Of a stretch of 64,000 nt of DNA, positions 36,886 through 62,040 are shown piece by piece (the stretch's first letter is position 1; each line of letters begins with the position of its first letter). This DNA comes from Nitrospirota bacterium (GTDB lineage: Bacteria > JACPQY01): assembly GCA_016190245.1 (NCBI GenBank), contig JACPQY010000008.1, positions 45,938-109,937 on the forward strand. The letters run 5' to 3'. Below the pieces are notes generated by a model. It was not told the origin of the DNA, made no database searches, and saw only the letters and a list, made by a program, of their open reading frames with translations. The position numbers and the translations under genes are program-made.

Positions 36886-37188
36886 CGCCCCGAGTCGCCC
36901 AAGCACGATGCCCTTGGGGTTCTTGATTCCGTCCCCGCCGGTCGGCGGGGACTTCGCTCGAACAATACCGCGCTGTGTGCAGGCCACGCCGCTCCGCCGC
37001 ACTCGGAGTGTGCAGGCTTCGGGCACTCGAAGACGTGTCCTGGCCTGCTTTCCTTTCGTGGCACGTGGACCTTGCTCTCGAAGCCGCAAGGTCCACGGGC
37101 TTCTTGCCCAGGTGTCGAGAAGCTCATTGTCCTGGGTGTTCGATGGGTTGGGCATCGTGCAATCCGAATCATCATCGACAATGGTGCG

Positions 37189-42406: not shown

Positions 42407-42428
42407 CATGTCTCGGCAGGATTCTGCC

Positions 42429-44549
42429 ATGGCTGTTTCGGAACGCACGCGGTTTGTCCGCTGGGCCCTGTTCGTGGGCCTACTGGCCTTTGCCGCCCAG
42501 TTCGCTTTCTCGCTCGCGTTCCTGACGAGTCAGGCGATCATGGGAGTCCAGGACCCCCGACTGGGGGAGTTGTTCAGGAAGTACTTCCTCGTGTCCGCCG
42601 GGCTGATGCAACTGCGGATCCTGGCGGCCTATTCCGCCGTGGGTCTCGCGCTCTCCGCGGTGGCCGTGCTGCCCTTCTCTGTCTTTCGCCCGGGGTCGCG
42701 ATGGCCCTTGCCGGTGCGATGGCTCGGTTTCTCTCTGGTTCTCATGTGCCTCCATTTCGGGTTCGTCTGCGCCGACATCCAGTCTCACCCCCAGAACTAC
42801 GCCGAGTTTCTCTACGATCGGGGGGGGGGATGGCGAAGCCTGCAAGTCCTGCTCACGGACGGCGGCGTCGGGATATGGGCGCGACGCTGCTCATGGGTTT
42901 TGACAGGGGCCTGCGTCCTGCCGGCGGCGGCCGCGGCCCTTTTCCGATGGCCTCGGCGGACGCTCGTTTTGGGAGGGGTCGTGCTCGTGCTCGCGTGGAG
43001 CGTGCAGCTATCCCCTGTGATCTCCGGTAACACGGGGCCCAATGTGATCGTGATCGCCGTTGATTCCTTCCGGTCCGATCGGCTCTTTTCCCCCATCACG
43101 CCGCGAATCAGCCGCCTCGCCGAGACCGGCGTGACCTTCCTTCGCGCCTATCCCGATGTCGCCCGCACCTTCCCCTCCATGGTGACCATCCACACGGGTC
43201 GCTACGCCCTTCGACACGGCATCCGGCACATGTTCCCTACGATCGAGCAGCGGGCGGCCATCGGCCAGACCCTGCCCCGCTTCCTCCGCGATCGTGGATA
43301 CGAGACGGCGGTGGTGGCCGACTACGCGGGGGACATCTTCCCCCGCGTGGACTTGGGGTTCAGCCGAGTGGACTGTCCGGACTTCACTGCCGGCACCCTC
43401 ATGGAGCAACGAGCGCTCGAAACCCATCCATTCCTTCTCCCGTATGTGAGCAACCGGTGGGGGATGCGGATCTTCCCGGCCCTTCGGGAATTCACCAGCC
43501 TCAGCGAACCGGCCGAGCTGGCCGCTCGCGGCAAGGAGATGATCGGGACACTCTCGCGCGCCCCGCGCTTCTTCCTGACGATCTTCTTCTCGTCAGCCCA
43601 TTTCCCCTACGCTGCCCCACACCCGTACTACGGACGGTTCACCGATCCCTCCTATCGCGGCCCGTACAAGTATCACAAGGCCAACCGGATAGACCTCGCG
43701 GAGGAAACACTCACGCCCGAGGATCGAGCCCAGGTACGCGGACTCTACCACGGGGCGCTCTACGCCGCCGATGAAGCCGCGGGCGATCTCATCCGCATGA
43801 TTCAGGAGTCCCCGCTCCGATCCAATACCTCGATCGTGGTGACGGCGGATCACGGAGAGAACTTGTACGAACCGGCCCGGTTTTGCACTCGACCCGTCGC
43901 GCCGAGCCGGGAGGGTGAGGTCGCCTCGGTCGAGTGCGAACACGGCTGGATGGGACACGGCGATGAACTCTGGAACGAAGAGGGTCTGCGCGTGCCGATG
44001 GTCTTCATCGGTCCCGGTCTCAACCCGCGGCGAGTCGAGGATGTGCCGATCTCGTTGGCGAGCCTTGCTCCCACGCTGGTGGAATGGCTTGGATTCCGAC
44101 TGGAAGACTACGGGCTCACGGATGGCGAGAGCCTCTCCGCGGCGCTGCGAGGCGGCCCTCCGCCGGAGACGCCGATCTACCTGGAAACGGGAGCGTGGTT
44201 CGTCCCGAGGGGACCGGCAAGGTTTCATCGGGAGCGGATTCCCTACGCGAGTCTCCTCGACTTCACGGAATTGGACGTGGATCACAACTTCGAGGTCGTG
44301 GCGCGTCCCGAATACGAACCGATCATCAACGGGAGCAAGCATCGCGCGGTCATGGAAGGGGATCGCCGACTCGTCTACATCCCGCTCCGGGATCGTCCGC
44401 GCTATGAACTTCTGCGCATTCGGGGCTACGAAACCGCGCCGATGGAGGACGAGAAGGAACTCGCTCGTCTGAAGCGGGAACTGGAGCGGATGATCACGGA
44501 GATCGGGACGGAAACGCTATCCAGCGGCTATTTCGTTGGGCCACACTGA
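42429..44549 (+). CDS. Membrane-anchored sulfatase-fold enzyme (alkaline phosphatase superfamily; Thr at the nucleophile position, EptA/LtaS-like)
   Basis: It has about 6 N-terminal TM helices, then NVIVIAVDSFRSDRL and ARTFPSMVTIHTGRY. The latter aligns to the sulfatase CTPSRAALLTGRY motif with T in place of C. The start is ambiguous (42408 or 42429). Confidence 0.65.
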   Translation: MAVSERTRFVRWALFVGLLAFAAQFAFSLAFLTSQAIMGVQDPRLGELFRKYFLVSAGLMQLRILAAYSAVGLALSAVAVLPFSVFRPGSRWPLPVRWLGFSLVLMCLHFGFVCADIQSHPQNYAEFLYDRGGGWRSLQVLLTDGGVGIWARRCSWVLTGACVLPAAAAALFRWPRRTLVLGGVVLVLAWSVQLSPVISGNTGPNVIVIAVDSFRSDRLFSPITPRISRLAETGVTFLRAYPDVARTFPSMVTIHTGRYALRHGIRHMFPTIEQRAAIGQTLPRFLRDRGYETAVVADYAGDIFPRVDLGFSRVDCPDFTAGTLMEQRALETHPFLLPYVSNRWGMRIFPALREFTSLSEPAELAARGKEMIGTLSRAPRFFLTIFFSSAHFPYAAPHPYYGRFTDPSYRGPYKYHKANRIDLAEETLTPEDRAQVRGLYHGALYAADEAAGDLIRMIQESPLRSNTSIVVTADHGENLYEPARFCTRPVAPSREGEVASVECEHGWMGHGDELWNEEGLRVPMVFIGPGLNPRRVEDVPISLASLAPTLVEWLGFRLEDYGLTDGESLSAALRGGPPPETPIYLETGAWFVPRGPARFHRERIPYASLLDFTELDVDHNFEVVARPEYEPIINGSKHRAVMEGDRRLVYIPLRDRPRYELLRIRGYETAPMEDEKELARLKRELERMITEIGTETLSSGYFVGPH

Positions 44550-46948
44550 TGGTTCGCAAGACGATCCGGCTGCTTCTCCTGTTCCTCGCGCTCGTCGCGC
44601 TGAGGAAAATCCTTTTCGAGCCGCCTCACTGGGCGCCGGACGTCCTGGGCGCCCTGCCGAGGGGCGAGGTGCTGAACCGCGGAAGCCATGAAGTGGTGGA
44701 GCGGTTGGCGGAGAAGAGGCCCGACCTCACGAACTACGACGAGGTGAGCGACCCCCGCATCCAATCGGTCTTCAGGGAGGGAACCGCTTTCCAAAAGTCG
44801 GGCCCGCGCGCCGGTCAGACTTGGGCCGCGGTAGGGCGCCTTGGGTTCGCCCTCGAATCCATGCCGGTGGTGATCGTGCCCGCGGGAGGCACGGTCGAGT
44901 ACCGTGTCACACTCCCGGAAGGCGCGGATTTCGAGACGCATGTGGCCGGGTGGTTTTCTCGGGAGGGCACACCCCGCCCCCTTCGTTTCACGGTGGACGT
45001 GGTCTCGGAACACCAGGTGACGCGCGTGGTGGACCGGACGGCTCCTCCCGCGCAGCCGCCAGGGACGACCCTTCTCCACCGAGCGGCGGCCACGCTTGAA
45101 AGGTGGACTCTTCGCGGTGCGCGCCCAAAGCGGTGGCTGCTCAAACAAGTGGAGGCGGACCTGTCCGAGTGGAGTGGCCGTTCAGTCGCGCTGCGCCTTC
45201 GTGTGGAGGACGAGGCGGGCGCGCCGTCCGCAGGGGTCGGCCTTTGGGGCGCGCCGACAATCCTGGGGGCGCCTGAAGGGGCGAAACCTAACCTGCTCTT
45301 CCTCGTGATCGACGGGCTCAGCCCGTATTTCACTGACTGCCTGGAGGATCGGGCGTGGACCGATACGCCGGTCATCGCCGACCTTTGCCGGAAAGGGGAG
45401 GTGGTGCGCCGAATGTACACCGCCGCGAACGGAACTCGGGCGAGCATTGCAGCGTTGGCGCACTCGTCCCGCGCCTCGGACTTGCTCCTGCCGATCTACG
45501 ACCGCGAGATCCCCGAGCGGGTGCGTCTCCTGCGCGCGTGGGGTCCGCCGTCACTCTTCGAGCGACTGGCCGGGCGCGGCTATCGCACCGCGGGCATTCA
45601 CGACAACATCTTTGCGATCGAAACCCACGAGGCTGGGTACGATCTCGGGATCGAGGAATCCTACGTTGTGCACGGCACGATGCAGGACACACCGAACATC
45701 GTCCGCCTCGCCTCGAACTGGCTCCAGAATCACCGCGGGGTCCACTTCGCCCTCTACGTGCACGTGGACGTCACGCACGATCTGTTCAAGGTGCCGCCCC
45801 TTCGCGACATGGCGGCGACACTTGTCCATGCGCCCGCCGCCGTCCCGAAGGCGTTTCGCTACGCCTCGGGCGCTCACTACGCAGACCGTGTGACGGGCTG
45901 GTTCCGGGATCTCCTGCGCACGGAGGGGCTCGATGGTCGAACCGTCTTCATTGTTTTGTCCGATCACGGCAACGTGTTCAGCCGGGACAAGCCACGCGCG
46001 TACTACTCCAAGCGCAACGGGAGGTGGCAGTGGAGCCGTCCCTACGGCCGGCACGGGGGAACCGCCTACGAGGATGACCTGAGGGTCTTGTGGGTGGCGA
46101 ACGGTCCTGGCGTTCGGCCAGGCGTCAAGGAATTCGGGTGGCTGCCCGATGAGGCGGCGAGATGGGCGGAGGCTGTATTCGAAGGTGTTGAAGACGCTTC
46201 CAAGGACTCTATCGGCGCCTGCCGCCCCGTGGACATGCAAATGGGCGAGGCCTGGGTCTGCCCGGATGGACTGAAGTACCTCCGATTCCTGAAGGGTGTA
46301 CGCGTCCGTGGGGATGGTCCCGAGCGGCCTGCGGAGGACGAGGTGTGGCGCGTTGGAAGCGGCTATGAAGAGCACGTGCTTTCCGGCCCCGAACTGGCCG
46401 AAGCACGAAGGCACGGACCTCCACCGGAGAATCCCCCCCCCCGAGGATGGGTGCTCAGGATCCCGCCCGATTCTTCAATCCAAGGAGAGGCCACCACGCA
46501 AGGTCGAGCCCAGCGGTTCGAGGGGGATGCTGCGAGGCGGGCGCCCCCCGCCGTCGCCTCGGACGAGGGCCTCGGATGCCGCTTCCGTGAGGTCGGAGCT
46601 GATCGGGTTTCGTTTGAAGGGCGGACGCAGGGGGACTGGTGCGAATTCTACTTCGAACTGCCAGGCCCAGCCCTCCGGTTGGACCTGAGGGATGGTGGGC
46701 GGAGCGTCGCGGCTGTTTCTCTCGGCCCACTCGGTATCAAGGCAACCGGGCCGGGTTTCCAGCTTGACGTGTCCAAGGCACCCCTACTGCGAGCGGACGC
46801 CGGCATGCCTTCTGTGTTCCTGTCGGAGTACCCCATGCTCTACACCACCTCGCGTCGGGCTTGGGCCTATTCGGATCTCCCCACCGCCCTGAGCCGCCAG
46901 ACCCCCGAAGTGGTCCAGATCATGAAGGACTGGGGCTACCTCAAGTAG
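44549..46948 (+). CDS. Sulfatase-like / alkaline-phosphatase-superfamily protein (third paralog)
   Basis: It has an N-terminal TM segment and the motif PNLLFLVIDGLSPYFTDCL, which is family-like. The start overlaps the upstream gene stop as TGATG. The assignment is weaker than for the previous two. Confidence 0.55.
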   Translation: MVRKTIRLLLLFLALVALRKILFEPPHWAPDVLGALPRGEVLNRGSHEVVERLAEKRPDLTNYDEVSDPRIQSVFREGTAFQKSGPRAGQTWAAVGRLGFALESMPVVIVPAGGTVEYRVTLPEGADFETHVAGWFSREGTPRPLRFTVDVVSEHQVTRVVDRTAPPAQPPGTTLLHRAAATLERWTLRGARPKRWLLKQVEADLSEWSGRSVALRLRVEDEAGAPSAGVGLWGAPTILGAPEGAKPNLLFLVIDGLSPYFTDCLEDRAWTDTPVIADLCRKGEVVRRMYTAANGTRASIAALAHSSRASDLLLPIYDREIPERVRLLRAWGPPSLFERLAGRGYRTAGIHDNIFAIETHEAGYDLGIEESYVVHGTMQDTPNIVRLASNWLQNHRGVHFALYVHVDVTHDLFKVPPLRDMAATLVHAPAAVPKAFRYASGAHYADRVTGWFRDLLRTEGLDGRTVFIVLSDHGNVFSRDKPRAYYSKRNGRWQWSRPYGRHGGTAYEDDLRVLWVANGPGVRPGVKEFGWLPDEAARWAEAVFEGVEDASKDSIGACRPVDMQMGEAWVCPDGLKYLRFLKGVRVRGDGPERPAEDEVWRVGSGYEEHVLSGPELAEARRHGPPPENPPPRGWVLRIPPDSSIQGEATTQGRAQRFEGDAARRAPPAVASDEGLGCRFREVGADRVSFEGRTQGDWCEFYFELPGPALRLDLRDGGRSVAAVSLGPLGIKATGPGFQLDVSKAPLLRADAGMPSVFLSEYPMLYTTSRRAWAYSDLPTALSRQTPEVVQIMKDWGYLK

Positions 46949-46966
46949 CATGCCCACAGTGTCAGC

Positions 46967-48106
46967 ATGAAGATCGCCGTCAACCTGAAAACAGTGGCTC
47001 GTGAAACGATGGGGATCGGCGTCTACGCCATGGAGTTGGCGCGACGGTTTCCCGCGCACGCCCCCTCCCACCAGTTCACCTATCTCGTCCGATCGGACGA
47101 TGTTTTCGAGCCCGCCGACCGGGATCATCGCGTCCGGTACCTGGCTGTTCCCCCGTCTCTCCGGAGCAAGCAAGGGCTCATTCTATGGGAGCACCTGGGG
47201 ATGCCACACCGTTTTGATCGGGACGGCGCCGATGTGGTGTTTCTCCCGGAGACGGTGGTGCCTCTCCGCCGTTTCGATGCGCCTGCCGTCGTCACCGTAC
47301 ACGATCTGGCCTATGCCGAAGCCGGAGAGACGATGACCGTGGCCAAGAGGCTCTACAAAGGGTGGTCGGCCCGCCACGCGGCCGGCCGGGCGGCCCATTT
47401 TGTTGCGGACTCGGACTACACCGCCGAAAGCATGAACCGGATACTGGGTGTGCCTCGATCGAAAACGACAACGGTGCCGCTGGGCGTGGACGGCGAGATC
47501 TTCCGACCGATACCCGATCCGGATCGCCGGCAGCCCCTCTGGAGCCGACTGGGGATCGGCACGGCGCCCTATCTACTGTACGCGGGAAACATCAATCCCA
47601 AGAAGAACATCGGCATGCTGATCGAGGCGTATCGCGAGGTCAGGCGCCAATGGGGGAACGATCTTCGGCTCGTATTTTCGGGCAAGATCGGATGGAAACT
47701 GAACGAGTTGTCGGCCTGGATAGCGGGCGAATGGCGGGACGGCATCCGGCACGTCGGATTCCTCTCGCGCGAGGATCTGGTGATGCTCTACTCCGAGGCC
47801 GCCATGCTGGTGTATCCGAGCAGCCACGAAGGATTCGGTCTTCCCCTTGCCGAGGCGATGGCCTGCGGGTGTCCGGTGGTCTCCACTCGGCGCACTTCAA
47901 TCCCGGAGGTGGTGGGCGATGCCGGAATCCTGGTCGAGGATATTTCCCCGGCCACGCTCGGCGACGCCATTCTTCGGCTTCTCCGAGAGCCGGGACTTCG
48001 AACCGATCTCGTCGGACGCGGATTGGAACGCGCCCGCCTCTTTTCCTGGGACCGCGCGGCACGGTTGACCTTGGAGGTGATCGAAACCATCGGCCGGCAG
48101 CGTTAG
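46967..48106 (+). CDS. Glycosyltransferase family 4 (GT-B, group 1)
   Basis: It has the EGFGLPLAEAMACGCPVVSTRRTSIPEVVGDAG motif (E-x7-E region). Confidence 0.8.
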   Translation: MKIAVNLKTVARETMGIGVYAMELARRFPAHAPSHQFTYLVRSDDVFEPADRDHRVRYLAVPPSLRSKQGLILWEHLGMPHRFDRDGADVVFLPETVVPLRRFDAPAVVTVHDLAYAEAGETMTVAKRLYKGWSARHAAGRAAHFVADSDYTAESMNRILGVPRSKTTTVPLGVDGEIFRPIPDPDRRQPLWSRLGIGTAPYLLYAGNINPKKNIGMLIEAYREVRRQWGNDLRLVFSGKIGWKLNELSAWIAGEWRDGIRHVGFLSREDLVMLYSEAAMLVYPSSHEGFGLPLAEAMACGCPVVSTRRTSIPEVVGDAGILVEDISPATLGDAILRLLREPGLRTDLVGRGLERARLFSWDRAARLTLEVIETIGRQR

Positions 48107-48159
48107 GCTCTTCATCCGTGTTTGGCAGAAGAATCATCGAAGGGTAATATCCTGCCAAC

Positions 48160-48645
48160 GTGTCTTCCGAGTCGCTTGAAGCCTGGCAGATCAACACTGA
48201 ACGGATGGCCGAGCAGATCCGGGAAGCTCGCGCCCCCTGCCGCACGGAGGAAGACCTCAAGATGAGGGTCGATCCGATCCTTCGGTCCGCATTTGAAAAG
48301 ATCGGCCTCGACGTCGAGAGCGTGAGATACGAACACGCCACCGGTTACCACGGCCGCATTGACGCATTGTACGGCTTTATGATCATCGAGTACGAAGCCC
48401 CGGGGAAGCTGAAGACTCGTCAAGGTTACAACGAGAGCATCGGCCAACTTCAGGCATACCTTGACGAGACGGCCTCCACGTTGGGGCAGGATCGGAAGGC
48501 AATCTTTTCGATCTTGGTGGGCGTCGAACGGAATCGAATGCTCGAATCCGTCGTCTTGCGCTGCGGCCTTATAGTATGGCAGGATCGCCGCATGGCTGAG
48601 CATCATGAGGAAGGCGGTTTGGACCGGAGCGTTGGGAGCCGATAA
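48160..48645 (+). CDS. Hypothetical protein (island gene 1)
   Basis: The 161-aa ORF has acceptable codon bias. Its stop overlaps the next start as TAATG. No motif is recognisable to me. Confidence 0.4.
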   Translation: MSSESLEAWQINTERMAEQIREARAPCRTEEDLKMRVDPILRSAFEKIGLDVESVRYEHATGYHGRIDALYGFMIIEYEAPGKLKTRQGYNESIGQLQAYLDETASTLGQDRKAIFSILVGVERNRMLESVVLRCGLIVWQDRRMAEHHEEGGLDRSVGSR

Positions 48646-49349
48646 TGCCGCCTCTTCGGCCCATGCCGCCTATTTCACTGCCTGTCGCCAAGCTGGCGCC
48701 TATTGGAACACATTGGAATGCTGGCGCGCTGACCCTTCCAAAATCATGGGGTGAGAGGGTGGGCGATCTGTGCGATCGGGTGGTAGGGGAGTGTCTTGCC
48801 AAGATGCTTGGCGACATCCCCGTGATGAAACCGGTCAAGTCGACAGCACTACTTCCTCCCGCGCCGGACTGCGTTGAAGTTGGACCCGCCCGCGTCATCG
48901 GTGGGATTCGGCCGCAGAACTTTGATGTGGCGTATCGTCCGGATGGTGTGCGATTCGCTTTTGACAGCAAGACGCTCAATACGAGGAAAAGCCTGTCGAA
49001 AAACTACCAGAACATGATAAACGATCTGGGTACCGAAGCAGCTACGGTGCATACGCGCTTTCCTTCCGCTATTGTCGCCTTTGTCGTGGCAGTGCCTGAA
49101 CCTTGTCTTTCGACTCACCGCAAGAACTTGACCACGGCATTGACCCGGCTCGCCGGTCGCAGGAGCAGTAGCGGGGATGTTCACAAGGCTGAGGCGATTT
49201 CACTCTTGGTTTGGAATCCGCACGATGGGTCCGCTGACAAGGATTGGCCGCCAAGAAGCTCTCCGCTGAGAATCGAGGAATTCTCCGCTCAGATTGAGCT
49301 GTGCTACATGGACCGTTTTGCCGGGTTGCCCCCTCACAACGTTGGTTGA
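48645..49349 (+). CDS. Hypothetical protein (island gene 2), a candidate restriction-endonuclease/specificity partner of the adjacent methyltransferase
   Basis: The 234-aa product has a weak PD...DxK-like string (YRPDGVRFAFDSK). It is translationally linked to genes 1 and 3. Confidence 0.35.
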   Translation: MPPLRPMPPISLPVAKLAPIGTHWNAGALTLPKSWGERVGDLCDRVVGECLAKMLGDIPVMKPVKSTALLPPAPDCVEVGPARVIGGIRPQNFDVAYRPDGVRFAFDSKTLNTRKSLSKNYQNMINDLGTEAATVHTRFPSAIVAFVVAVPEPCLSTHRKNLTTALTRLAGRRSSSGDVHKAEAISLLVWNPHDGSADKDWPPRSSPLRIEEFSAQIELCYMDRFAGLPPHNVG

Positions 49350-51144
49350 GCGGGACCACCATCCAGTAAAGAACGGCGCCAAGGTGCTGGCGTCCAGGAA
49401 GTTCAGCACGCCAAGGTACTCACGCAAGAAGTCCGTGGAGTACGCCCAGGGTGCTGGACCGGTGATCCCCCTTGCGATTGCGGAGGAGCAGCAGATCTCT
49501 CTCATTGAGGGCATAGGCAAAGCCCGGCAGGGTGGGGCTGTCCCATCAAAGATTCCGGGTCGCTATCATCGGAATGGTACAGAAGAAAAGATTCGCGGGG
49601 CGGTCTACACTCCGCCTCGCGTGGCGGCCTCACTGACTCGCTGGGCGGTTCGTTCACGCGTGGACAAGGTCTTGGATCCATCCTGTGGAGAAGGAGTCTT
49701 CCTCTCGGCGGCGCGGACTCGACTAGCCGACTTGGGAGCACGCAAGCCGGAATGCTTGGGGGTGGACATTGATTCAGAGGCGGCGGCTCAGTCCGGAGCC
49801 ATTTGTGCCGACTTTTTCCGTTGGATTGGGATCGCCTCGAAATTCGATGCTATCATCGGCAATCCGCCATTTGTGCGTTCGCATCTTTTCCCGGAGGATA
49901 GCCGGGCGTTGGCTTTCGATGAGATGGCGAAAATGGGCCTGCGCGGGTCGCGCCTCATGAGTACATGGGCGCCTTTTCTTGCTCTATGCTGCAAGACCCT
50001 TGGTGAACAGGGAAGGTTGGCCATGGTTATCCCTGAGGAGTTGCTTGCCGTCGGTTATGCTGAAGGATTGCGGAAGTATCTGCTCAACCGATTCCGGCGG
50101 GTGATTGTTTGTTTCCCTGCTGAAGGAATCTTTCCGGAAGTCCAGCAGGCCGTCATCCTGCTATTGTGTGATAACGATTCCAGCGGCAAGAGCGGATTAC
50201 TGACGATGGAGTATTCTTCGCTGGAGGAAGGAGATTTCGAGGCTGTGAATCCTGCGGCGCCATGGGAATGGAATGGGAAATGGACACATCTTTTCTTGTC
50301 CCCATGGGACAGACGCCGTGTTGTCGAATGGTGGCTGCAGTCGGATTGGCAGCCATTCTACTCTTATGGCCGGGTCGAGGTCGGTATCGTGACGGGTGAC
50401 AACAGCTTCTTCATCCTCAACCGAGAGGAAGCTCGGCGATTTGACGGGAAGCATCTGGTTCCGATTGTGACCAGCGCCAAAGATCTTCGCGGGATCAAGT
50501 TCGGCGCTGATGATTTCAAGAGAGTGCTCAGAGAAAGTCGTCCTGCCTTCCTGATCAATCTGGCAGAATCCAAGGGGAGATTGTCCGCATCAGAGCGTTC
50601 GTACTTGGAATTGGGAGAACGGGAGCAGATCCCTGAACGCTACAAATGCCGGGTCCGGGAGCCTTGGTACGCCGTGCCGAGCGTTTGGGCACCTGACGGC
50701 CTACTCCTGCGGCAGGCGGGGGAAATGCCGCGATTGGTGCACCTTACGAAGAAATGCACCGCAACGGACACTATACACAGAGTAACCTGGCGCTCACCTA
50801 AGTTGGGCCGACGTCATTCGGTAAGCTTCATGAACACCTGGACGCTCATGGCTGGGGAGTTGATGGGACGGAGCTACGGCGGCGGCGTATTGGAGTTGAT
50901 GCCAAGCGAGGCCAATCGGCTGCCCATGCCGGGACCGAGCCAAGCCCTCGACGAGGCGTTCGATGCGGTGGACGAGAGAGTGCGATCTCGCAACTTCCAC
51001 GATGCAGTGTCCATCGTTGACGACTTGGTTATGCCGTGTTGGATGTCGAAGGAAGATAGAAGCGCCGCCGGAGGGATACTTAGCAAACTCATTTCTCGTC
51101 GGAAGGTACGCAGCGCGGCACAGGTGGATGTTGTTGGCCATTGA
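49294..51144 (+). CDS. N6-adenine-specific DNA methyltransferase, gamma class (M.TaqI/Eco57I-like), with a C-terminal target-recognition region
   Basis: Motif X is VYTPPRVAASL. Motif I is VLDPSCGEGVFL. Motif IV is IIGNPPFVRS. The start is uncertain: ATG at 49294 overlaps the upstream gene by 56 nt, and TTG at 49342 is an alternative. Confidence 0.8.
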   Translation: MSCATWTVLPGCPLTTLVERDHHPVKNGAKVLASRKFSTPRYSRKKSVEYAQGAGPVIPLAIAEEQQISLIEGIGKARQGGAVPSKIPGRYHRNGTEEKIRGAVYTPPRVAASLTRWAVRSRVDKVLDPSCGEGVFLSAARTRLADLGARKPECLGVDIDSEAAAQSGAICADFFRWIGIASKFDAIIGNPPFVRSHLFPEDSRALAFDEMAKMGLRGSRLMSTWAPFLALCCKTLGEQGRLAMVIPEELLAVGYAEGLRKYLLNRFRRVIVCFPAEGIFPEVQQAVILLLCDNDSSGKSGLLTMEYSSLEEGDFEAVNPAAPWEWNGKWTHLFLSPWDRRRVVEWWLQSDWQPFYSYGRVEVGIVTGDNSFFILNREEARRFDGKHLVPIVTSAKDLRGIKFGADDFKRVLRESRPAFLINLAESKGRLSASERSYLELGEREQIPERYKCRVREPWYAVPSVWAPDGLLLRQAGEMPRLVHLTKKCTATDTIHRVTWRSPKLGRRHSVSFMNTWTLMAGELMGRSYGGGVLELMPSEANRLPMPGPSQALDEAFDAVDERVRSRNFHDAVSIVDDLVMPCWMSKEDRSAAGGILSKLISRRKVRSAAQVDVVGH

Positions 51145-51349
51145 GCGATGATCGAGCATACGAGGTTTGGCATCCGGGGACCTTGATGATCCGTTCACAT
51201 AGGTTCCCCCTCCGCCACCCGAAGTTCGATCCCCGACACCGCTCCCACATTCGCCTTTGCGAACTTTCGGAAAAAGCGCACGAGAAGGTGAAACGCGGGA
51301 CGACCATTGATGACATTGACGGGGAAATAGACGAAAATGTGAGGAAGCT

Positions 51350-52237
51350 GTGGAATATCGGGTCTTGAATCCCAAGGATGGCGACTACCCGCGGCGTCTG
51401 AGAGAGCGCCTGGGCAGGGAAGCCCCCACGCTGTACGCCCTCGGACCCCTCGAACACCTGTCGAGATGGACACTCGCCTTTCTGACAGCCGACCAGGAGC
51501 CTGGATTCGTAATCCGCGCTGCATGGGATATGTTCTTCCCGGTCTTGGAATACGAAATGAACGCCATCGGCCCATGGCAGTCCGTCAATGAGGGGGTCTT
51601 TCTGAGATCCGCCCTCGAAAAGCCGTGGATTTCGATGACGCTTTTCACAGCGAAGGGATTGGAGCGCGAAACGTACACAAGCTTTCTCGATGCCCGCCAT
51701 CCGGGGCGCTTTCACGATTTCCTCCAGCGGCCGGAGTACGAGCGTCGTGCTGCCGCGGGGGAACTCCTTTTGCTGTCGATTTCTCCTCCACGGCACGGCC
51801 GTCAGTCGCGCGCGGTCATCCTCGAACGTAACTGGATTGCGTGCCATCTGGCCGATGTCGTTTTCATCGGCGGGGCGGAAAAGATCACCAAGGTGTGGGA
51901 TGCCGAACGGCGGAAATACAACGAGAAACCCCAAAAGACGTTCGCACTGGCCCGACGCCTTGTGAAAACGGGCGTGCCTATTTTCACCGTGGATCACGAG
52001 GACAACAAGGAACTCCTCGCCCTGGGCGTTCCGGGGTACAATCCGAAGACGATCCGCCCGCTTCTTGAATCCCTTGGCGCCCGGAAAGGTCGTGCGCCGG
52101 AATTGCCGGTCTTGACGACCAACGACGAAGAAGTCCCGTCCAATGAATCTGCGTCCGCCTCCGTTCCAGCCAAGTCCCGCCCGGCGGAGCAACTCAAACT
52201 GCTCCATCTGTCCCCCAACCCCCGAAAGCCCGGTTGA
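51350..52237 (+). CDS. DprA/Smf-family (SLOG-fold) protein, divergent
   Basis: The N-terminal YPRRLRERLGREAPTLYALG matches the DprA motif YP.LL.EI.DPP.VLY..G. The segment ILERNWIACHLADVVFIGGAEK matches the DprA motif ERNRIIAGLSDATLVVEAAEKSG. The start is GTG at 51350 and is uncertain. Confidence 0.5.
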   Translation: MEYRVLNPKDGDYPRRLRERLGREAPTLYALGPLEHLSRWTLAFLTADQEPGFVIRAAWDMFFPVLEYEMNAIGPWQSVNEGVFLRSALEKPWISMTLFTAKGLERETYTSFLDARHPGRFHDFLQRPEYERRAAAGELLLLSISPPRHGRQSRAVILERNWIACHLADVVFIGGAEKITKVWDAERRKYNEKPQKTFALARRLVKTGVPIFTVDHEDNKELLALGVPGYNPKTIRPLLESLGARKGRAPELPVLTTNDEEVPSNESASASVPAKSRPAEQLKLLHLSPNPRKPG

Positions 52238-52992
52238 GTGTGAAAACGGTGGATGCCAACTCTCGTCAGGAACGGGCTGAAATCGAGGTTTTTGGTCAGT
52301 TCGTGCAGGCGGCAATGTTGCGTGTGGAACAGGGATCGATTCAGAAACGGAACCCGCCGGAACCGGACATCCTCTGCCACGTGGAGGGGGAGGGACCCGT
52401 AGCATTCGAACTTGTTGAACTCATCGACCGGGATTTTGCGCGCAAAATAAATACCGCCATTGATCTGAAAGGGCGATTGGAGGAATTATTCAATCAATTG
52501 CCGCAGAACGAACGTGACGAGATTTCTCACAGGTTCGGAAATGCGGTAGTTGAGGTCGTTCCGAGAAATGGGGCATCCTCCCGTCGGGTGGAGTCTGATC
52601 TGCCGAATGTGCTGCGCGCCTTGCAGACGGCTCCCTTCGGATTGGAGGACATGGTTTCAGCGACTGCATTGGGCCTTGAAGCGACTGAGATCAATCATCT
52701 GCTTGTTGCCCGTGGGGAATTGAATGGTCCGTGTTTCGACTTGGACACCACCCTTACTTGCAGCGACCCGACGGTCGAGAGAATTGCCGCGAAATTCAAG
52801 AAGAATTACAAGACTACCGCCCCGATCGAACTCTTGGCGTACTCGGAACTGCAACCCCCAGCCCCTGGGAACACTTGGAAGCCTTCACTTCTCGAGTATT
52901 GCCAGTCCAACTTGGGCCAGAGTCCCTTCCGTCGCATCTGGATTTTCTGCATAAGGTCAAGGGAAATACTGTTAACATTTCCGGAGACATAG
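52234..52992 (+). CDS. Hypothetical protein (island gene 5), lowest-GC gene in the window
   Basis: The 252-aa ORF starts at a TTG that overlaps the upstream stop as TTGA. No family is recognisable to me. Confidence 0.4.
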   Translation: MSVKTVDANSRQERAEIEVFGQFVQAAMLRVEQGSIQKRNPPEPDILCHVEGEGPVAFELVELIDRDFARKINTAIDLKGRLEELFNQLPQNERDEISHRFGNAVVEVVPRNGASSRRVESDLPNVLRALQTAPFGLEDMVSATALGLEATEINHLLVARGELNGPCFDLDTTLTCSDPTVERIAAKFKKNYKTTAPIELLAYSELQPPAPGNTWKPSLLEYCQSNLGQSPFRRIWIFCIRSREILLTFPET

Positions 52993-53203
52993 GGATTTGG
53001 TGAGGATCGTCCAGCGATCCTTCGCTCTACACATTTTCTTTCCCCTGACTGGCTCAGCTTTCCAATGCGTGGGTTCTCTTGCGAACCGGCTCCGAGAGCT
53101 TGATCGTACCCAAGCCGGGCAGCGATGGTTGCCTTACGAGTGGCAGCCCAGCCCTGCTGTTGACTGGCTACCCTCAACTCCTACGGCCTGAATCATCAAC
53201 TTG

Positions 53204-54709
53204 TCAGCCGCGGCCGAGGGTTTTGACGCTGCGGAGGAAATCGCGCGTCCAGGCCTTCGTGAGGAACGCGAGGGCGACAAACAACAGAAGCGAAGCCAGC
53301 GTGCCGGTGATGTTCAGAGAGATTTCCTTCTGACCGAGCGAGAACCAGAGCCCCGCAACCAGGGGGGCCCCCGCCAGCAGGATCTTCCCGATGCCGGCCG
53401 GCTCCAGGAGCCGGAGCGCGGAGACCTCGATCGCGCGCGCCACGAGGACCAGAGTCAAGACCGCCATCACTCCATAGGAGATCAGGCCTGCCGCTGCGGA
53501 ACCAGTCAACCCCCACAGCGGGATGAGGGCGATGTTGAGCGCCACGTTCACGAGCGAACCCACACCTATCGGAATTGAAGCGCCGAAGGGCCGGTTCGTC
53601 GCCAGCAGGATGTTCCCCGTGAGTTGCGCCACGCTGTGCAGGAGACATCCTGCGAGCAGAATTCGCAGGGCCGGCGTCGCCTGGCGGAAATCCTCGCCGA
53701 ACCATCCCATGATCATGTCGGCCGCCCCGATCCCGGCGAGCATGATGGGCCAGCCGAGGAGGACGAGATAGCGGTGGGTGGTGCGATACGTCTTGAGCAT
53801 CTGCTCGTTCTCCCCGCGGTGCCACAATCCAGAAAGAGAGGAGAAAAGCATCTGCGCGGGGAGGCGCGTGATCATGTCGAACACCTTGAAGACCGAGTAG
53901 GCGCTGGCGTAGTAGCCGAGCTGTTCGACGGTGAGGAAGAGAGGGATGATGAGGCGGTCCGCGTACTCGATCACGATTTCCGAGAGCTGCTGTGGCAGGG
54001 CGCGGGCGTTGTAGCCGATCACGGCGCGCGAGGAAGGACCCGGCCCGGGCGGCTCCGCCGTCCGCCGCCGGTATTCCCTGAGAACGAAAAGTCCACCGGC
54101 GAGGAACGCGCAGAGCGGAAAGAAGACCTTGTAGAGGGAAGCCGACTGGGCCGAGCGCCCGAACAGAGAGGGAAGGAGAAGCACGAATCCCAATGTGAGA
54201 TATTGCGCCACCGTCTCGGCGCGGAAAAAGAACTTCATCCGCTGAGTCGCGCGGAACCGGCATTGCGCGAACTGCCAACTGTGTTCCAGGAAGGCGGCGG
54301 CGAAGACGAGAGGGATCAGCGCCGTCCACAGGCCCCCCTGGCCATAGGCCCGGTCGAGAACAACTGCCGAGATCGGGATCACGACGGCCGCGGAGAGAGT
54401 CATCATCCAGATCGAGGTTCGATAGGTCTTCCAGAAGAGCGACCAGCCACGGGAGCTGTCCGGAGAGTGCGCGGTGAGTGCGTGCGCGAGGCCGGCCCCC
54501 CCGGTCAGCCGGGAGACGTAGGCGAGGAGGCCTGAGAAGAAGAGGAGGAGCGCCACCTGCCCCACGACCTCGGCGCCGAAGAGCCGGGCCAGCGCGATGT
54601 TGATTCCAACGACGGCGGGGAAGGGCACGATGCGCGCCAGCGTGTTGTAAACGACGGCGGAGACGAGCTGCCGGGACACAGCGGTGGGCGGCTGCACGTT
54701 CGAACTCAA
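53204..54709 (-). CDS. Polysaccharide biosynthesis protein / oligosaccharide flippase (Wzx-like, MOP superfamily)
   Basis: It has about 12-14 TM helices. I chose a TTG start at 54709, which is preceded by GAGGAG-N5 and overlaps the upstream GT4 stop as TTGA. The ORF-track start is 54799. Confidence 0.7.
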   Translation of the reverse strand: MSSNVQPPTAVSRQLVSAVVYNTLARIVPFPAVVGINIALARLFGAEVVGQVALLLFFSGLLAYVSRLTGGAGLAHALTAHSPDSSRGWSLFWKTYRTSIWMMTLSAAVVIPISAVVLDRAYGQGGLWTALIPLVFAAAFLEHSWQFAQCRFRATQRMKFFFRAETVAQYLTLGFVLLLPSLFGRSAQSASLYKVFFPLCAFLAGGLFVLREYRRRTAEPPGPGPSSRAVIGYNARALPQQLSEIVIEYADRLIIPLFLTVEQLGYYASAYSVFKVFDMITRLPAQMLFSSLSGLWHRGENEQMLKTYRTTHRYLVLLGWPIMLAGIGAADMIMGWFGEDFRQATPALRILLAGCLLHSVAQLTGNILLATNRPFGASIPIGVGSLVNVALNIALIPLWGLTGSAAAGLISYGVMAVLTLVLVARAIEVSALRLLEPAGIGKILLAGAPLVAGLWFSLGQKEISLNITGTLASLLLFVALAFLTKAWTRDFLRSVKTLGRG

Positions 54710-55833
54710 CGAATCTCCTCGTAGACGGCCAGTGTTTCGCGTGCGAACCGGTCGAGGGGGAACCGGCTGAGCGCGCGCTGTCGGCCGGCTCGGCCCCATC
54801 GGCGCGCCTCGTCCCGGTTCGACAGGATCCGGATGATCGCCGAAGCAAGGTGCTCGGGATGGTCGTGGGGCACGACGATGCCGCTCTTCTCGTGTTCGAC
54901 CACTTCAGGAAGACCGCCCGTATCGGAGACGACGACCGGAACTCCCTCCACCATCGCCTCGGCCACGGAGAGGCCGAACCCTTCGATGAATGCTCCGGAG
55001 GGGAGGCTGAATTGGACGAGGACGTCCGCGATGGCGTGGAACGAGCGCGCATCGACGGCATCGCCGCAGAAGCGGACCGCATCGTCCACCCCTTTCGCCC
55101 GGGCTTCCCACCTGAGCTCCTCCAGCGCATCCCCGGACCCCACCATCACGTACACCGCATCGGGCACGCGGCGCAGAACGTCCGGAAGGGCGTGGAGGAC
55201 CTCCGCCTGTCCTTTCCTCGGGTGCAGATGCGCGATGGTGAGGATGATCTTCTTCCCGAAGAGATCGAAGCGGGATCGGAGGTCGGACAGGTCTTCCGGG
55301 GGATGGTAATGGGGCGACGTATCAACGCCGTTGTAGATAACCGCCAGTTTGTCTTGAGGAAGGCCCCGATCTTCTGCCAGCGAGCGCGTGAACCGACTCA
55401 CGCAGATGATCCGGTTGGTCGCCAAGTAGGACGGCCGGAAGATCCGATCTCGCAGGTGACGACGACCCGCCACACACAGGTTCCGCCGGATCTCCGTCCC
55501 GTGAACGGTCATGATCTTCGGGATCCCCCCGCACTCCACCCGGCCGAGGGCCAGATGAGCCATCGAGCTTGTGGCGTGCACGACATCGGGCCGGACTCGG
55601 TCTACCGCTTCTTCAAGCGCCCCGCACCCTCTGAGATAGCGCCGGAGGTTCGAGCCCGTCGCGTCGAAGCGGTACAGGTGCAAGCCCGGCAGTCCGGGAT
55701 CCGATGGCGAGCCCGGGCATACCCCATGTACCTCGTGTCCCTGGCGGGCAAACTCGGCACCGAGGCTTGTCGTATACGTCGCGATGCCTCCAAGCTTTGG
55801 CGGGAAATCGTAGGAGAAGAGAAGGATTTTCAT
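54706..55833 (-). CDS. Glycosyltransferase family 4
   Basis: The N-terminal MKILLFSYDFPPKLGGIATYT and the C-terminal EGFGLSVAEAMVEGVPVVVSDTGGLPEVV motifs are conserved. Confidence 0.8.
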   Translation of the reverse strand: MKILLFSYDFPPKLGGIATYTTSLGAEFARQGHEVHGVCPGSPSDPGLPGLHLYRFDATGSNLRRYLRGCGALEEAVDRVRPDVVHATSSMAHLALGRVECGGIPKIMTVHGTEIRRNLCVAGRRHLRDRIFRPSYLATNRIICVSRFTRSLAEDRGLPQDKLAVIYNGVDTSPHYHPPEDLSDLRSRFDLFGKKIILTIAHLHPRKGQAEVLHALPDVLRRVPDAVYVMVGSGDALEELRWEARAKGVDDAVRFCGDAVDARSFHAIADVLVQFSLPSGAFIEGFGLSVAEAMVEGVPVVVSDTGGLPEVVEHEKSGIVVPHDHPEHLASAIIRILSNRDEARRWGRAGRQRALSRFPLDRFARETLAVYEEIR

Positions 55834-55879
55834 CGAAGGCGTTCACCCCCACCCTGGTTCTCGGAACTCCTCACCCTGG

Positions 55880-55903
55880 CCCTCTCCTCGTTGAGGAGAG
55901 GGG
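55880..55903. other. Perfect 10-bp stem / 4-nt loop hairpin (CCCTCTCCTC gttg GAGGAGAGGG) in the GT4-flippase intergenic region, followed by a G-rich tract (55990-56040)
   Basis: I read it directly from the sequence. Confidence 0.4.
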
Positions 55904-56044
55904 AACTCCCTCTCCCTAACACGTGGACAAGGAGTCCAGGTGCCACGAAAGGAAAGCAGTCCGCCGCGGCGGAGACGGCCTGCGAATAGCGTGGCAGGGA
56001 GAGGGGTGGGGTGAGGGTTGGCGCGGATGGGGGGGGCTGAGCGG

Positions 56045-57514
56045 CTAGCATTCGGGCCTCAGCAGTTTCTTTCGCCACAGCCATCCGGCGTAGGCGGCCA
56101 CGAACAGGGTGGAGAGGCCGAGCACCTCGGCCGGGCCGGTGCCGGGGAGAAGCGCGGCGGCTCCCCAGGTGCCTGCCCCGAGCGCGAGGCCGGCGGCGAG
56201 AACCCGCGCCTGTCGCCGACTGAACCCGTGCACGCCGATTCGCCGCCAGGTCATCCAGGCCTGGGGCACTTTGGATAGAGCGTTCCCCCCCCCCGCAAGG
56301 GCCCCCGCCGCCCAAGTCCCCGCCACTGGGATGCACAACGGGCCGAGCGCCGCCACCATGGCGATGGGAATGCTATTGAACAGCGTGTAGGCGAAGGGGC
56401 GTCCGGTCGCGGCGAGGACCTCACCCGTCGGACCCGCCGCGAGATTCAGGAAGCTGCCGGCGGACAGGAGGACCAGCGCGGTGTAGCCTACTTTTCCGTC
56501 CATCCCGAACAGCTCGATCAACCACGCGCCGAAAATGACATAGAGGACAAGTGCCGGCAGCGCCCCAGCGGTGCCCCAGAGCGTGGAGAGACGGGTCGAA
56601 CGGCGCAGGCGATCCAAGTCGCCCGACGAGGATGCTTCGGCCATCAGCGGCGTGACGATGGGCGTGAAAGCGGCGCGGATCTTGGCCAGCAAGTAGGCCA
56701 ACTCCGTCGCGAGATTGTAGGCGGCCACCTGCGCAACAGGGAGATAACGGCCCACCAGGAAAATGTCAACACGCCTCGCCAGGAGCGCGGAGACATTTAC
56801 CCCCCCGAGGGCCACGGCGAAGCGGAGGGTTTCCCCGTCGAGGCAGCCCCCCCCCCGGAGGGAAAGCGTGCGGAGGCTGAAGTGTCGCGCGAAAAACGCG
56901 AGGCCGACCAGGAGAACGACGGCCTCGGCCGCGAGGTGCGCGGCGTAAGGACCGGCCGAGGCCCAGGGGGCCGAGCCGGCGAGCCCCAGTACGGCCAGTG
57001 AGACGATCAGCATGACGACCGGTTCGAGAAACTCAATCCCGATCACGAAGTAGGCCATGATCTTCAGCCCGCGCGTGGCGGCGTAGAGCATCCGGGCCGT
57101 CACGGCCGGCGGCAGGATCACCGCCATCCAGCGCAGCCCCGCGGCGACCTCCGGCTTGCGGAAAAACGAATCCGCGATGAAGGGCGCGGAAACGAACAGC
57201 GCCGCGCCCAGCACGAGGCTCGCGATCAGCGGAAGACCGAGGGCCGTCCTCAGGCAGGCCCTTTCCTGCTCCGGATCCCTTCCGCGGTACCGCGGGATGA
57301 AGTTCCACAGGGCATTGTCGAATCCCGCAAGGCATACGAAAAGAAGGAAATCGAAAACGGCGAAGCTGAGGGTGTAGTGGGCATACACCGTCGTGCCGTA
57401 GAGAGAGGCCACCACCCAGAGGAATCCCACGCGCGTGCACCGGAGGAGGATGCCGAAGAGATTGGTGGCCGACCCCTGCGCCAGGATGCGGGCGTCGGCC
57501 GCGGGGGGGCTCAC
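56045..57514 (-). CDS. Polytopic membrane protein, MOP-type flippase / polysaccharide biosynthesis protein (second copy)
   Basis: It is 489 aa with about 12 TM helices. It lies in the polysaccharide locus and overlaps the next GT4 gene by 4 nt. Confidence 0.55.
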   Translation of the reverse strand: MSPPAADARILAQGSATNLFGILLRCTRVGFLWVVASLYGTTVYAHYTLSFAVFDFLLFVCLAGFDNALWNFIPRYRGRDPEQERACLRTALGLPLIASLVLGAALFVSAPFIADSFFRKPEVAAGLRWMAVILPPAVTARMLYAATRGLKIMAYFVIGIEFLEPVVMLIVSLAVLGLAGSAPWASAGPYAAHLAAEAVVLLVGLAFFARHFSLRTLSLRGGGCLDGETLRFAVALGGVNVSALLARRVDIFLVGRYLPVAQVAAYNLATELAYLLAKIRAAFTPIVTPLMAEASSSGDLDRLRRSTRLSTLWGTAGALPALVLYVIFGAWLIELFGMDGKVGYTALVLLSAGSFLNLAAGPTGEVLAATGRPFAYTLFNSIPIAMVAALGPLCIPVAGTWAAGALAGGGNALSKVPQAWMTWRRIGVHGFSRRQARVLAAGLALGAGTWGAAALLPGTGPAEVLGLSTLFVAAYAGWLWRKKLLRPEC

Positions 57515-58680
57515 GCGGCCGGGGCGGATTCGAGTACGTCGAGAACGACCCGCTCCACCTGACGCGCGATGGTGGGCGCCGCGAAGCGCCGTCGCACCGT
57601 TTCCCGCCCCGCCCGGGCGAGGCGTTGGCGCAGGGTGGGGTCATCGAGCAGTGCGCACACGGCCTCGGCGATCTTCTCGGGGTTCGCCGGGGGGACGAGG
57701 AGCCCGTTCTCACCGTCGGTCACGATTTCCGGGATTCCTCCCACGCGCGTGGCCACCACCGGCACCCCCGCGGCCATGGCCTCGATCAGCACCCGCCCGA
57801 AGGGCTCCTGTTCCGAGGGCACGACCGCCACGGCGGTTCTACTGAGGTAGGGCCCGATGTCCGGTACCGCGCCGATGAACCTCACGGCAGGTCCGAGACT
57901 GAGTTCGGCTGCGCGATGCTGAAGGCGGCGGCGGTAATCGCCGGGGTCTCCCACCGGTGCGTCGCCCACGATGAACACCCGTGCCTCGGGGTGACGGCGC
58001 AGGATGTGCGGCGCCGCCTCCACCAGATGGAGCGCGCCCTTGCGCGGGATCAGGTTGCCGAAGTATGCGACCGCGGGTGCCTCCTTGGAGAACCCGTGTG
58101 AGATTCGCAGTCCACCTCCTCGCCGGCCAGTCCGTTCCGCGGGCAGGTCCACGCCGTTGTAAATCACGAGGGTTTTGCCGGGAACGACCCGCGAGTAGGG
58201 TTCGGCGGATGCCTCGGAGTTGCACACGACGCAGCGGACCCACGGGGACCGGGCGAGGCCGGGATAGAAGGCCGCACCCAGGGGCGAGTCGTGAATATTG
58301 CGGCAGTGGAAGACGACGGGACGGCCTGCGATCGCGCCGGCGACCCAGCCGATCGGTTTCGTGAGCATGTTGTTGCAGTAGATGAGATCGATGCCCTCGG
58401 CGCGGGCGAGCCGGGCGGCCCCGATGGCGGCGCGGCCCAGCCCCGCGAGGCGCGCGGGTGCAGCGGAGTCCGCCGGGAGCCGTTCAGGCATGCCCGGCAG
58501 AATCACGTAACGAATCCCGAGTTTCTCGAAGGAGTCGGCGAAGATGCCGGGGGTCGGAACGCCGACGACGGCTTCGAAGCGCCACCCGTCCAAGTGTTCC
58601 AGCAGCCGCAGGAGACTCCAGCCTGCCCCTCCCCCGCGAACGCAGGTGGAGAGGAAGAGGATGCGATGACGCCTGGCCAT
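57511..58680 (-). CDS. Glycosyltransferase family 4
   Basis: The EQEPFGRVLIEAMAAGVPVVATRVGGIPEIV motif is conserved. Confidence 0.8.
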   Translation of the reverse strand: MARRHRILFLSTCVRGGGAGWSLLRLLEHLDGWRFEAVVGVPTPGIFADSFEKLGIRYVILPGMPERLPADSAAPARLAGLGRAAIGAARLARAEGIDLIYCNNMLTKPIGWVAGAIAGRPVVFHCRNIHDSPLGAAFYPGLARSPWVRCVVCNSEASAEPYSRVVPGKTLVIYNGVDLPAERTGRRGGGLRISHGFSKEAPAVAYFGNLIPRKGALHLVEAAPHILRRHPEARVFIVGDAPVGDPGDYRRRLQHRAAELSLGPAVRFIGAVPDIGPYLSRTAVAVVPSEQEPFGRVLIEAMAAGVPVVATRVGGIPEIVTDGENGLLVPPANPEKIAEAVCALLDDPTLRQRLARAGRETVRRRFAAPTIARQVERVVLDVLESAPAA

Positions 58681-58739
58681 CAGCTCGTCCCTTCAGCCTC
58701 GGAGCGTACCGCTGACCGCTGAATGCCGATATATGACGG

Positions 58740-59261: not shown

Positions 59262-59319
59262 GGTTTTCCCCTACCGGGCCGTTATGTACCAGACATGGAC
59301 GCCATAAAGCAAGCGACCT

Positions 59320-60720: not shown

Positions 60721-60829
60721 TTGGCGCTCATTCTACTCTGCGGGGAAACCACGTGTCATGGACGCACTTGAGTGGGGGTCTTGCGGAGGTAGGGAACCTG
60801 TGCCATGGTTCGCCCAGAGGGGATTCCAG

Positions 60830-61042: not shown

Positions 61043-61049
61043 GCTTCTT

Positions 61050-62012: not shown

Positions 62013-62040
62013 GGGGGCCTTCCTTTATCATTACCGGCCG

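Follow-up and report, generated by a model that had tools for sequence, protein, structure and literature searches.

The 64-kb window analysed here, the whole stretch of DNA taken from a contig of a Nitrospirota metagenome-assembled genome (MAG), carries a surface-polysaccharide locus that is interrupted at positions 48107-53203 by an island of defence-related genes. This segment is very probably a horizontally acquired, composite (nested) defence islet that contains no mobility gene. According to the history proposed here, the islet would have entered an 8-bp spacer between the stop codons of two convergent genes, for a GT4 glycosyltransferase and a polysaccharide flippase, without damage to either. 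Its older layer would have been a two-gene operon, in which the gene of a type IIG restriction-methyltransferase of ~1100 aa was followed, with overlapping stop and start, by that of a DprA-like protein (ORF4; ORF, open reading frame). The younger layer would be a portable type II restriction-modification (R-M) pair, consisting of a candidate endonuclease (ORF2) and an M.Eco57I-like DNA methyltransferase (ORF3), which would have replaced codons ~123-1040 of the type IIG gene. A 161-codon N-terminal stub (ORF1), with the catalytic lysine changed to glutamate, and a 60-codon tail would be the leftovers of that gene. Judged by the sequence relationships described below, replacement of the type IIG interior by a portable type II R-M pair appears to be the most economical reading of the island.

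The pair, referred to below as the cassette, is the part of the islet that would be expected to work today: ORF3 would methylate adenine at a specific site of the host chromosome, and ORF2 would cut incoming DNA lacking that mark. ORF4 and a further gene, ORF5, are intact reading frames and may still be expressed.

Composition and extent of the island

The island (5097 bp) had a GC content of 56.9%, as compared with 65.8% for the rest of the window and with 64.8% and 66.4% for the 5-kb flanks. It coincided with the minimum-GC 5.1-kb stretch of the window, about 3.5 standard deviations (sd) under the mean of such stretches. The initial annotation of this DNA had described a fall to about 38-60% GC; the drop itself is real, but these values hold for very short windows only, since the island ranged from 52 to 61% in 400-bp windows, with minima of 36%, 41% and 48.5% in windows of 50, 100 and 200 bp. 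The GC content at third codon positions (GC3) averaged 0.824 among the 31 window genes outside the island (sd 0.043, minimum 0.733), and all five island genes were found under this minimum, with values of 0.71, 0.60, 0.64, 0.70 and 0.60 for ORF1 to ORF5 (z from -2.6 to -5.1). The segment 48107-53203 is foreign in composition. Moreover, the genes of the two proposed layers fell into two GC3 classes, the values of ORF1 and ORF4 (0.71 and 0.70) being distinct from those of ORF2 and ORF3 (0.60 and 0.64), which fits the existence of two layers.

Gene calls and Pfam searches agreed with the annotated layout of five plus-strand genes lying between the end of the GT4 gene at 48106 and that of the flippase gene at 53204. 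A sixth island ORF of 60 codons (51186-51368), which is the type IIG tail mentioned above, had been overlooked. ORFs on the minus strand of the island yielded no domains and were considered shadow ORFs.

The empty site and the direction of the event

A protein database search with the GT4 protein returned only the source MAG (as 'Nitrospirae bacterium') and one relative, the Nitrospirae MAG GCA_016180645.1 (locus L163), in which this protein is 76% identical. Scanning species-representative genomes and JGI metagenomes with the same protein gave no match above 41% identity. The contig of this sister MAG is collinear with window positions 42457-62201 (~20 kb) at 65-79% nucleotide identity (blastn), in the gene order sulfatases, GT4, flippase, GT4, flippase, GT4. 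In the sister, only the 8-bp spacer ACTTTCCG separates the TGA that ends GT4 from the stop of the flippase gene (reverse TAG), as against 5097 bp between the same stops in the window, and both genes are full length in the two genomes. The presence or absence comparison recommended in the initial annotation thus upheld its proposal of an insertion at this locus, because the sister lacks the 5.1 kb and its flanking stops nearly meet; what did not stand was the image of a simple five-gene unit, the insert being a nested composite instead.

The opposite polarity, in which the island would be ancestral to the locus and the sister would have lost it by precise deletion, gains some room from the availability of a single relative for comparison and from a further difference between the two loci, the LplA-like gene of the sister being absent from the window. 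It is nevertheless unlikely. The GC3 values of the five genes are all below the range of the 31 host genes, their defence content is unrelated to polysaccharide synthesis, and in the sister the two convergent genes, both full length, are cleanly separated by 8 bp. In addition, recent transfer would be in keeping with the 74-86% identity that links the cassette genes to counterparts in other phyla. Because of its composition and of a gene content comprising defence genes and none for polysaccharide synthesis, insertion of the segment in this genome is far more likely than precise deletion in the sister.

An assembly artefact was also considered, namely that the junctions are chimeric, with foreign reads spliced into the polysaccharide locus during assembly. 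The source is a metagenome-assembled genome, and the sister species with the empty site occurs in the same sample (SRR12113385). However, contigs assembled independently from two Sequence Read Archive runs were 100% identical to the window, one of them (16.7 kb) crossing both junctions and another crossing the left one, and the flanks are 21-35% diverged from the sister at the nucleotide level, so that confusion of the two genomes is impossible. A chimera is therefore extremely improbable.

Remnants of a type IIG gene

ORF1 matched the PADLOC profile REase_MTase_IIG (PDLC03630) with an E value of 7.7e-12 over profile positions 12-114 of 1100. Three intact type IIG proteins (1091-1108 aa) matched this profile from end to end (E<=1e-253) and were compared with the island by tblastn. 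Their residues 6-122 matched positions 48175-48525 in ORF1 (45-49% identity) and their residues ~1041-1106 matched positions 51207-51359 in the 60-codon ORF (38-51% identity). These were the only two matches of the three proteins in the island, and they lie in the correct order and on the correct strand. About 170 of the ~1100 residues are represented in this way, in two separate ORFs, the surviving codons being ~6-122 and ~1041-1089. The ~920 residues absent from the island include the enzyme's own methyltransferase and recognition domains, and ORF2 and ORF3 are found in their place. The arrangement at the distal end is also that of intact operons: in all three independent lineages for which long contigs were available (L167; L170; L171-L174), an ORF4 homologue directly follows the 1091-1108-aa type IIG gene with an overlap of 13-19 nt, and an overlap of 19 nt likewise exists between the stop of the 60-codon ORF and the start of ORF4.

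The catalytic motif of ORF1 reads D68...E77-Y-E79, at the position of D...EYK in the three intact homologues, a change of lysine to glutamate which suggests that the type IIG stub is dead. Neither a single chain of ~1100 aa nor the D...ExK motif was found in the island, which by these sequence characters would hold only the remnant of a type IIG enzyme and no member of that type.

It could be supposed that the pieces still cooperate, ORF1, ORF2, ORF3 and the 60-aa ORF forming a functional split restriction enzyme with ORF1 as its working nuclease subunit. The ORF1 frame is indeed unbroken across the whole nuclease-domain homology, the overlap of its stop with the ORF2 start (TAATG) would permit coupled translation, and a promoter-like match lies just upstream. 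Such an enzyme would, however, have to do without the catalytic lysine that is found in 3/3 intact homologues and without the ~920 missing residues and their methyltransferase and recognition domains. Besides, neither an ORF1-like nor a tail-like gene accompanies the cassette in at least four other contexts. This explanation is given little credence, and the remnants are better read as debris of the replaced gene.

The putative type II cassette

The DNA methyltransferase reported in the initial annotation was recovered as ORF3, which matched the Pfam families M_Eco57I_C (6e-28), Eco57I (1.5e-12) and N6_Mtase (2.7e-11) and covered the whole PADLOC profile MTase_II (PDLC03267) at 1.7e-121. Its translation contains motif I (VLDPSCGEG) and motif IV (NPPF), and it is 59-63% identical to the cassette methyltransferases of four other loci (L175-L178).

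ORF2, which shares 1 nt of its start with the stop of ORF1, belongs to a family of 2081 homologues, up to 86% identical, from Verrucomicrobia, Phycisphaerae, Acidobacteria and Ktedonobacterales. The family is named 'hypothetical protein' in every source that names it, and ORF2 had no match in Pfam and no sequence match in the PDB. Residues E78, D94 and D107-S-K109 proved invariant in the family alignment, and matches to PADLOC REase_II, all weak, were obtained for ORF2 itself (0.039) and for 15 of 31 sampled family members. Because the invariant set E78/D94/D107-x-K109 and the REase_II matches support an endonuclease role, ORF2 is predicted to be a candidate PD-(D/E)xK-type endonuclease. The alternative identification of ORF2 as a diverged part of the type IIG protein was ruled out, BLASTP having detected no similarity.

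In Verrucomicrobia and other MAGs, ORF2 homologues and an M.Eco57I-like methyltransferase form a tight pair beside unrelated housekeeping genes (L175, L176, L177/L178), and the same pair is present on the one viral contig found to carry the ORF2 family (L184). An Eco57I-type methyltransferase stood alongside in every context of the family that was examined. Similarity between cassettes extends from the ORF2 ATG to the ORF3 stop; when the DNA preceding ORF2 and that following ORF3 were aligned among four loci, no conserved cassette ends appeared beyond the coding sequence. Since ORF2 shows no type IIG similarity, and since ORF2 and ORF3 recur as a pair elsewhere with similarity bounded by the ORF2 start and the ORF3 stop, the two can be regarded as a separate portable unit.

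A 52%-identical ORF2 homologue adjoins Eco57I-type genes on the Mesorhizobium amorphae plasmid pM0123a (L185). In this record (85022-90682), the homologue is convergent with genes of a 1022-aa Eco57I-domain protein and a 589-aa N-6 methylase, and the ORF2 family would therefore also accompany larger Eco57I-type enzymes, not just the 580-aa methyltransferase. In one Verrucomicrobia MAG (L176:3976-8639), the cassette lies between a full-length thrS and a 59-aa fragment, which matches the last half of the HGTP_anticodon domain and is 31% identical to the thrS C-terminus. This fragment looks like the remainder of a second class II aminoacyl-tRNA synthetase-like gene gutted by the cassette, in parallel with the type IIG gene of the window.

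Another role that can be imagined for ORF3 is that of a host epigenetic regulator of the surrounding polysaccharide genes, its neighbours being incidental. Surface-polysaccharide loci are often variably expressed, and the island does lie inside one. Against this, the methyltransferase and ORF2 form a fixed pair in unrelated neighbourhoods, no repeat tract or invertible element was found in the island, and the sister species has the same locus without the methyltransferase. Such a regulatory role is thus very improbable, and ORF3 is preferably viewed as the modification half of the cassette.

The DprA-like protein

ORF4 had been proposed to be a DprA/SLOG protein, and this identity was borne out at the level of the fold. 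An AlphaFold (AF2) model built from a 17-sequence alignment had a mean pLDDT of 85, with residues 1-255 confident and the tail (256-295) disordered. Foldseek matched it, at probability 1.0, with ShosA (8zva, 1.8e-9) as the top match and with the DprA structures 3uqz, 3maj and 4ljk from three species (4e-9 to 5e-7); these were followed by further SLOG members, namely Moco-carrier and LOG proteins. A profile of the ORF4 family also matched H. pylori DprA in the PDB at an E value of 0.005. By sequence, ORF4 had no Pfam match, remaining below the gathering score of DNA_processg_A (PF02481), for which its relatives gave weak or faint matches only. In PADLOC, it matched PsyrA over 42 residues only (8.1e-5).

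The family is small, with 25 detectable homologues. No homologue was found on plasmids, nor was any member of the family found in IMG/VR. Distant type IIG homologues do occur on plasmids, at 27-29% identity, where they stand alone. Because these plasmid enzymes lack a neighbour of this kind and ORF4 has no plasmid homologue, the DprA-like protein appears to be a helper specific to a sub-clade.

The disordered tail of ORF4 contains the sequence QLKLL at residues 281-285. In 8/10 close family members the corresponding tail reads QLSLF, QLDLF, QLELF or QLKLF, with an invariant glutamine. QLxLF is an established consensus for binding to the beta clamp (PMC4549789), and the tail of the ORF4 family therefore resembles a putative clamp-binding motif.

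Two precedents make a helper role plausible. ShosA binds DNA and counteracts the DNA damage caused by its partner (PMC11961720), and in H. pylori, DprA has an inhibitory effect on type II restriction enzymes and a stimulatory one on methyltransferases (Dwivedi et al. 2013, PMC3597690). By analogy, protection or repair would be the most plausible role of the DprA-like family beside a type IIG enzyme. A literature search found no description of a pairing between a DprA-like protein and a type IIG enzyme, which is weak evidence of absence; the coupling of type IIG enzymes with DprA-like proteins bearing a clamp motif is recurrent and apparently undescribed.

A bolder and rather doubtful proposal can be added, in which ORF4 would not be a leftover but a portable accessory of restriction enzymes, kept for the incoming cassette, intact and with its junction for translational coupling. 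As a ShosA-like DNA binder tethered to the clamp through its QLxLF tail, it might shield newly replicated, unmethylated host DNA from the partner nuclease or help to repair it. If this were true, a type IIG enzyme together with a clamp-tethered DprA-like protein would constitute an undescribed two-component R-M variant.

In L171-L174, the intact type IIG/DprA-like pair is part of a five-gene block made up of an HNH protein, an Mrr_N protein, the type IIG enzyme, the DprA-like protein and a Peptidase_M78 protein (core at ~2437-9891 in L171), which is found in four different contexts, two of them with a large serine recombinase just upstream. This block may be a larger mobile defence element around the pair. 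In GCA_964590435.1 (L167:3451-4446), a CAP12-PCTIR TIR-domain gene lies directly upstream of the pair, in surroundings resembling a defence island.

ORF5

ORF5 begins 12 nt past the ORF4 stop and belongs to a large family without annotation, for which a full HMMER scan of 50%-identity clusters at E<=1e-3 yielded 1058 cluster representatives, almost all of them single-domain proteins of ~245 aa. No match was obtained in Pfam, NCBIfam, PADLOC, PHROG, PDB sequences, plasmids or phages. Its predicted fold is confident, yet Foldseek gave no significant match in the PDB. The family displays a near-invariant PPEPD...FELVE and an invariant K182, and these conserved residues would tentatively fit a variant nuclease site in a restriction-endonuclease-like core. 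Relatives of ORF5 stand alone, surrounded by small uncharacterised genes; one of them has a TIR gene in its vicinity and another an HNH-WYL gene. A partnership of ORF5 with the DprA-like protein was rejected, given that no other DprA-like locus contains it and that its own relatives occur as solitary genes.

Junctions and mobility signatures

As annotated initially, the junctions are free of integrase and tRNA genes: domain scans found no integrase or transposase domain on either strand of the island, and the only tRNA gene of the window is located at 31260, none being nearer to the island. An Rfam scan of 47800-53500 gave no match. The 8-mer reported near both ends, GAATCATC, is present at 48131 and 53190, but it has a third copy at 37166 and its occurrence is at chance level, an 8-mer common to segments of these sizes being found in 10% of shuffles and in 22% of random pairs of real segments. 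Because of this frequency, GAATCATC provides no evidence of target duplication. The search for terminal direct repeats that had been suggested (47900-53400, seed 8, minimum 12) found no significant direct or inverted repeat longer than this 8-mer pairing the island ends, and returned only short imperfect matches, none of which joins the ends.

A sigma-70-like match, TTGGCA-17-TAATAT, is located at 48122-48150 in the left junction, and another at 51310-51338. Both are consensus matches only, from promoter and terminator scans whose counts were near expectation (3 promoter matches found against 1.8 expected). A weak 7-bp inverted repeat is also present in the left junction; a hairpin was rejected there, as the fold was no better than that of shuffled sequences (z -1.8).

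Several points weigh against the nested history. The searched collections contain a single close relative, and the polarity of the event comes from composition and content, not from parsimony. No match was obtained for the 120 bp that separate the end of the type IIG homology (48525) from the start of ORF2, which place the left breakpoint of the cassette only approximately, and the GC3 gap between the layers is based on short genes. The endonuclease call for ORF2 is weak, given its PADLOC value of 0.039 and the missing Pfam and PDB matches. No integrase, tRNA, transposase or significant repeat accounts for the movement of either layer, and the composite may have formed in this genome or have arrived ready-made.

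Surroundings of the island

The features of the island and its flanks are given in Table 1. The flippase gene was called at 53204-54697 (497 aa), with its stop codon at 53204-53206.

Table 1. Coordinates of the island, its predicted genes and the flanking genes in the window
Feature	Position	Strand	Length	Remarks
GT4 glycosyltransferase gene, left flank	46967..48106	+	379 aa	Intact, length as in sister MAG; Pfam Glycos_transf_1 (2.4e-30), Glyco_transf_4
Inserted island	48107..53203	+	5097 bp	Sister MAG has an 8-bp spacer instead
Left junction, non-coding	48107..48159	+		47% GC
ORF1, N-terminal remnant of type IIG gene (nuclease domain)	48160..48645	+	161 aa	Homology over 48175-48525
ORF2, predicted type II restriction endonuclease	48645..49349	+	234 aa	Family conservation, adjoining methyltransferase, weak PADLOC REase_II; cassette (ORF2 + ORF3) spans 48645-51144
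ORF3, M.Eco57I-like gamma-class N6-adenine DNA methyltransferase	49342..51144	+	600 aa (as called)	49294 is the start of the longest ORF
60-codon ORF, C-terminal remnant of same type IIG gene	51186..51368	+	60 codons	tblastn to type IIG C-terminus; homology over 51207-51353
ORF4, DprA/ShosA-like SLOG-fold protein	51350..52237	+	295 aa	Predicted structure and Foldseek
ORF5, solitary protein of large unannotated family	52249..52992	+	247 aa	Alternative TTG start at 52234
Right junction, non-coding	52993..53203			56% GC; no RNA family
Polysaccharide flippase (Polysacc_synt_3) gene, right flank	53204..54799	-		Intact; Pfam 5.3e-15

A second indel was noticed at this locus. In the sister MAG, an LplA-like lipoate-protein-ligase gene (L163:8958-10004) lies between the gene of an 800-aa sulfatase and the GT4 gene, where the window has 18 bp (46948-46967). 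Genes of the sulfatase family precede GT4 at 42408-44549 and 44549-46948, both on the plus strand, and gene calling on L081 placed a third one on the minus strand. Their conservation in the sister MAG suggests that the polysaccharide locus includes putative sulfatases or enzymes of the phosphoethanolamine-transferase type. A few kb upstream of the polysaccharide locus, the sister contig also encodes a NACHT-HEAT-repeat protein and an SLFN/AlbA_2-HATPase_c_4 protein (L163:1-2232), both with defence-associated domains.

Comparison with known systems and significance

Small insertions without integrase carry R-M genes as one of their most common types of cargo, and surface-polysaccharide loci are variable regions. 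A small R-M islet within such a locus is of a known and ordinary kind. Integrase-less indels and allelic substitutions of R-M genes have been catalogued, 149 of 158 indels being without long target duplication (Furuta, Abe & Kobayashi 2010, PMC2853133). The islet resembles these cases in the presence or absence of an R-M pair at one site without a mobility gene, and in the substitution of one R-M system by another. It differs from them in that the substitution would have taken place inside a single type IIG gene, both ends of which were left. Moreover, the present comparison is made between species (GT4 76% identical) and not between strains, and it shows no duplication beyond the chance 8-mer.

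With M.Eco57I-type type II R-M systems (PF07669/PF22837, PDLC03267), the cassette shares a full-length methyltransferase with its motifs, immediately downstream of a small candidate endonuclease; the ORF2 family departs from them in having neither a Pfam model nor a solved relative. As regards single-chain type IIG enzymes of the Eco57I/BpuSI type (PDLC03630), the homology of ORF1 and of the 60-aa ORF is confined to the two ends, and the catalytic lysine is lost.

Like ShosA (8zva, PMC11961720), ORF4 possesses a Rossmann/SLOG fold and a disordered C-terminal tail and belongs to a family found in a defence context with a potentially DNA-damaging partner. In contrast, it is only 14-16% identical to ShosA and DprA and lacks their N-terminal SAM domain. 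The partner of the ORF4 family is a type IIG enzyme and not a ShosT phosphoribosyltransferase, no ShosT gene being present in the island. Likewise, the RecQ-like helicase toxin gene of PsyrTA (RqlHI) was not found in the island, and the PsyrA match is confined to the 42 residues mentioned above. Since neither toxin partner is present, the gene content indicates that the island is neither ShosTA nor PsyrTA. H. pylori DprA is comparable as a DprA-fold modulator of R-M enzymes; it differs in being a chromosomal competence protein encoded outside any R-M operon.

The interest of the islet lies in its nesting. One R-M system that has apparently overwritten the middle of another, with the ends and the partner gene of the latter left in place, would represent direct sequence evidence that defence genes turn over and compete, seen inside a single 5-kb islet from a poorly sampled phylum. 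The islet also brings together three unannotated families: that of ORF2, a candidate endonuclease with more than 2000 homologues, that of ORF5, with more than 1000 clusters, and the rare DprA/ShosA-like family. The coupling of this last family to type IIG enzymes suggests that some single-chain restriction enzymes may need a helper for DNA protection or repair, an idea which connects with the recent work on ShosA and with the reported action of DprA on R-M enzymes in H. pylori.

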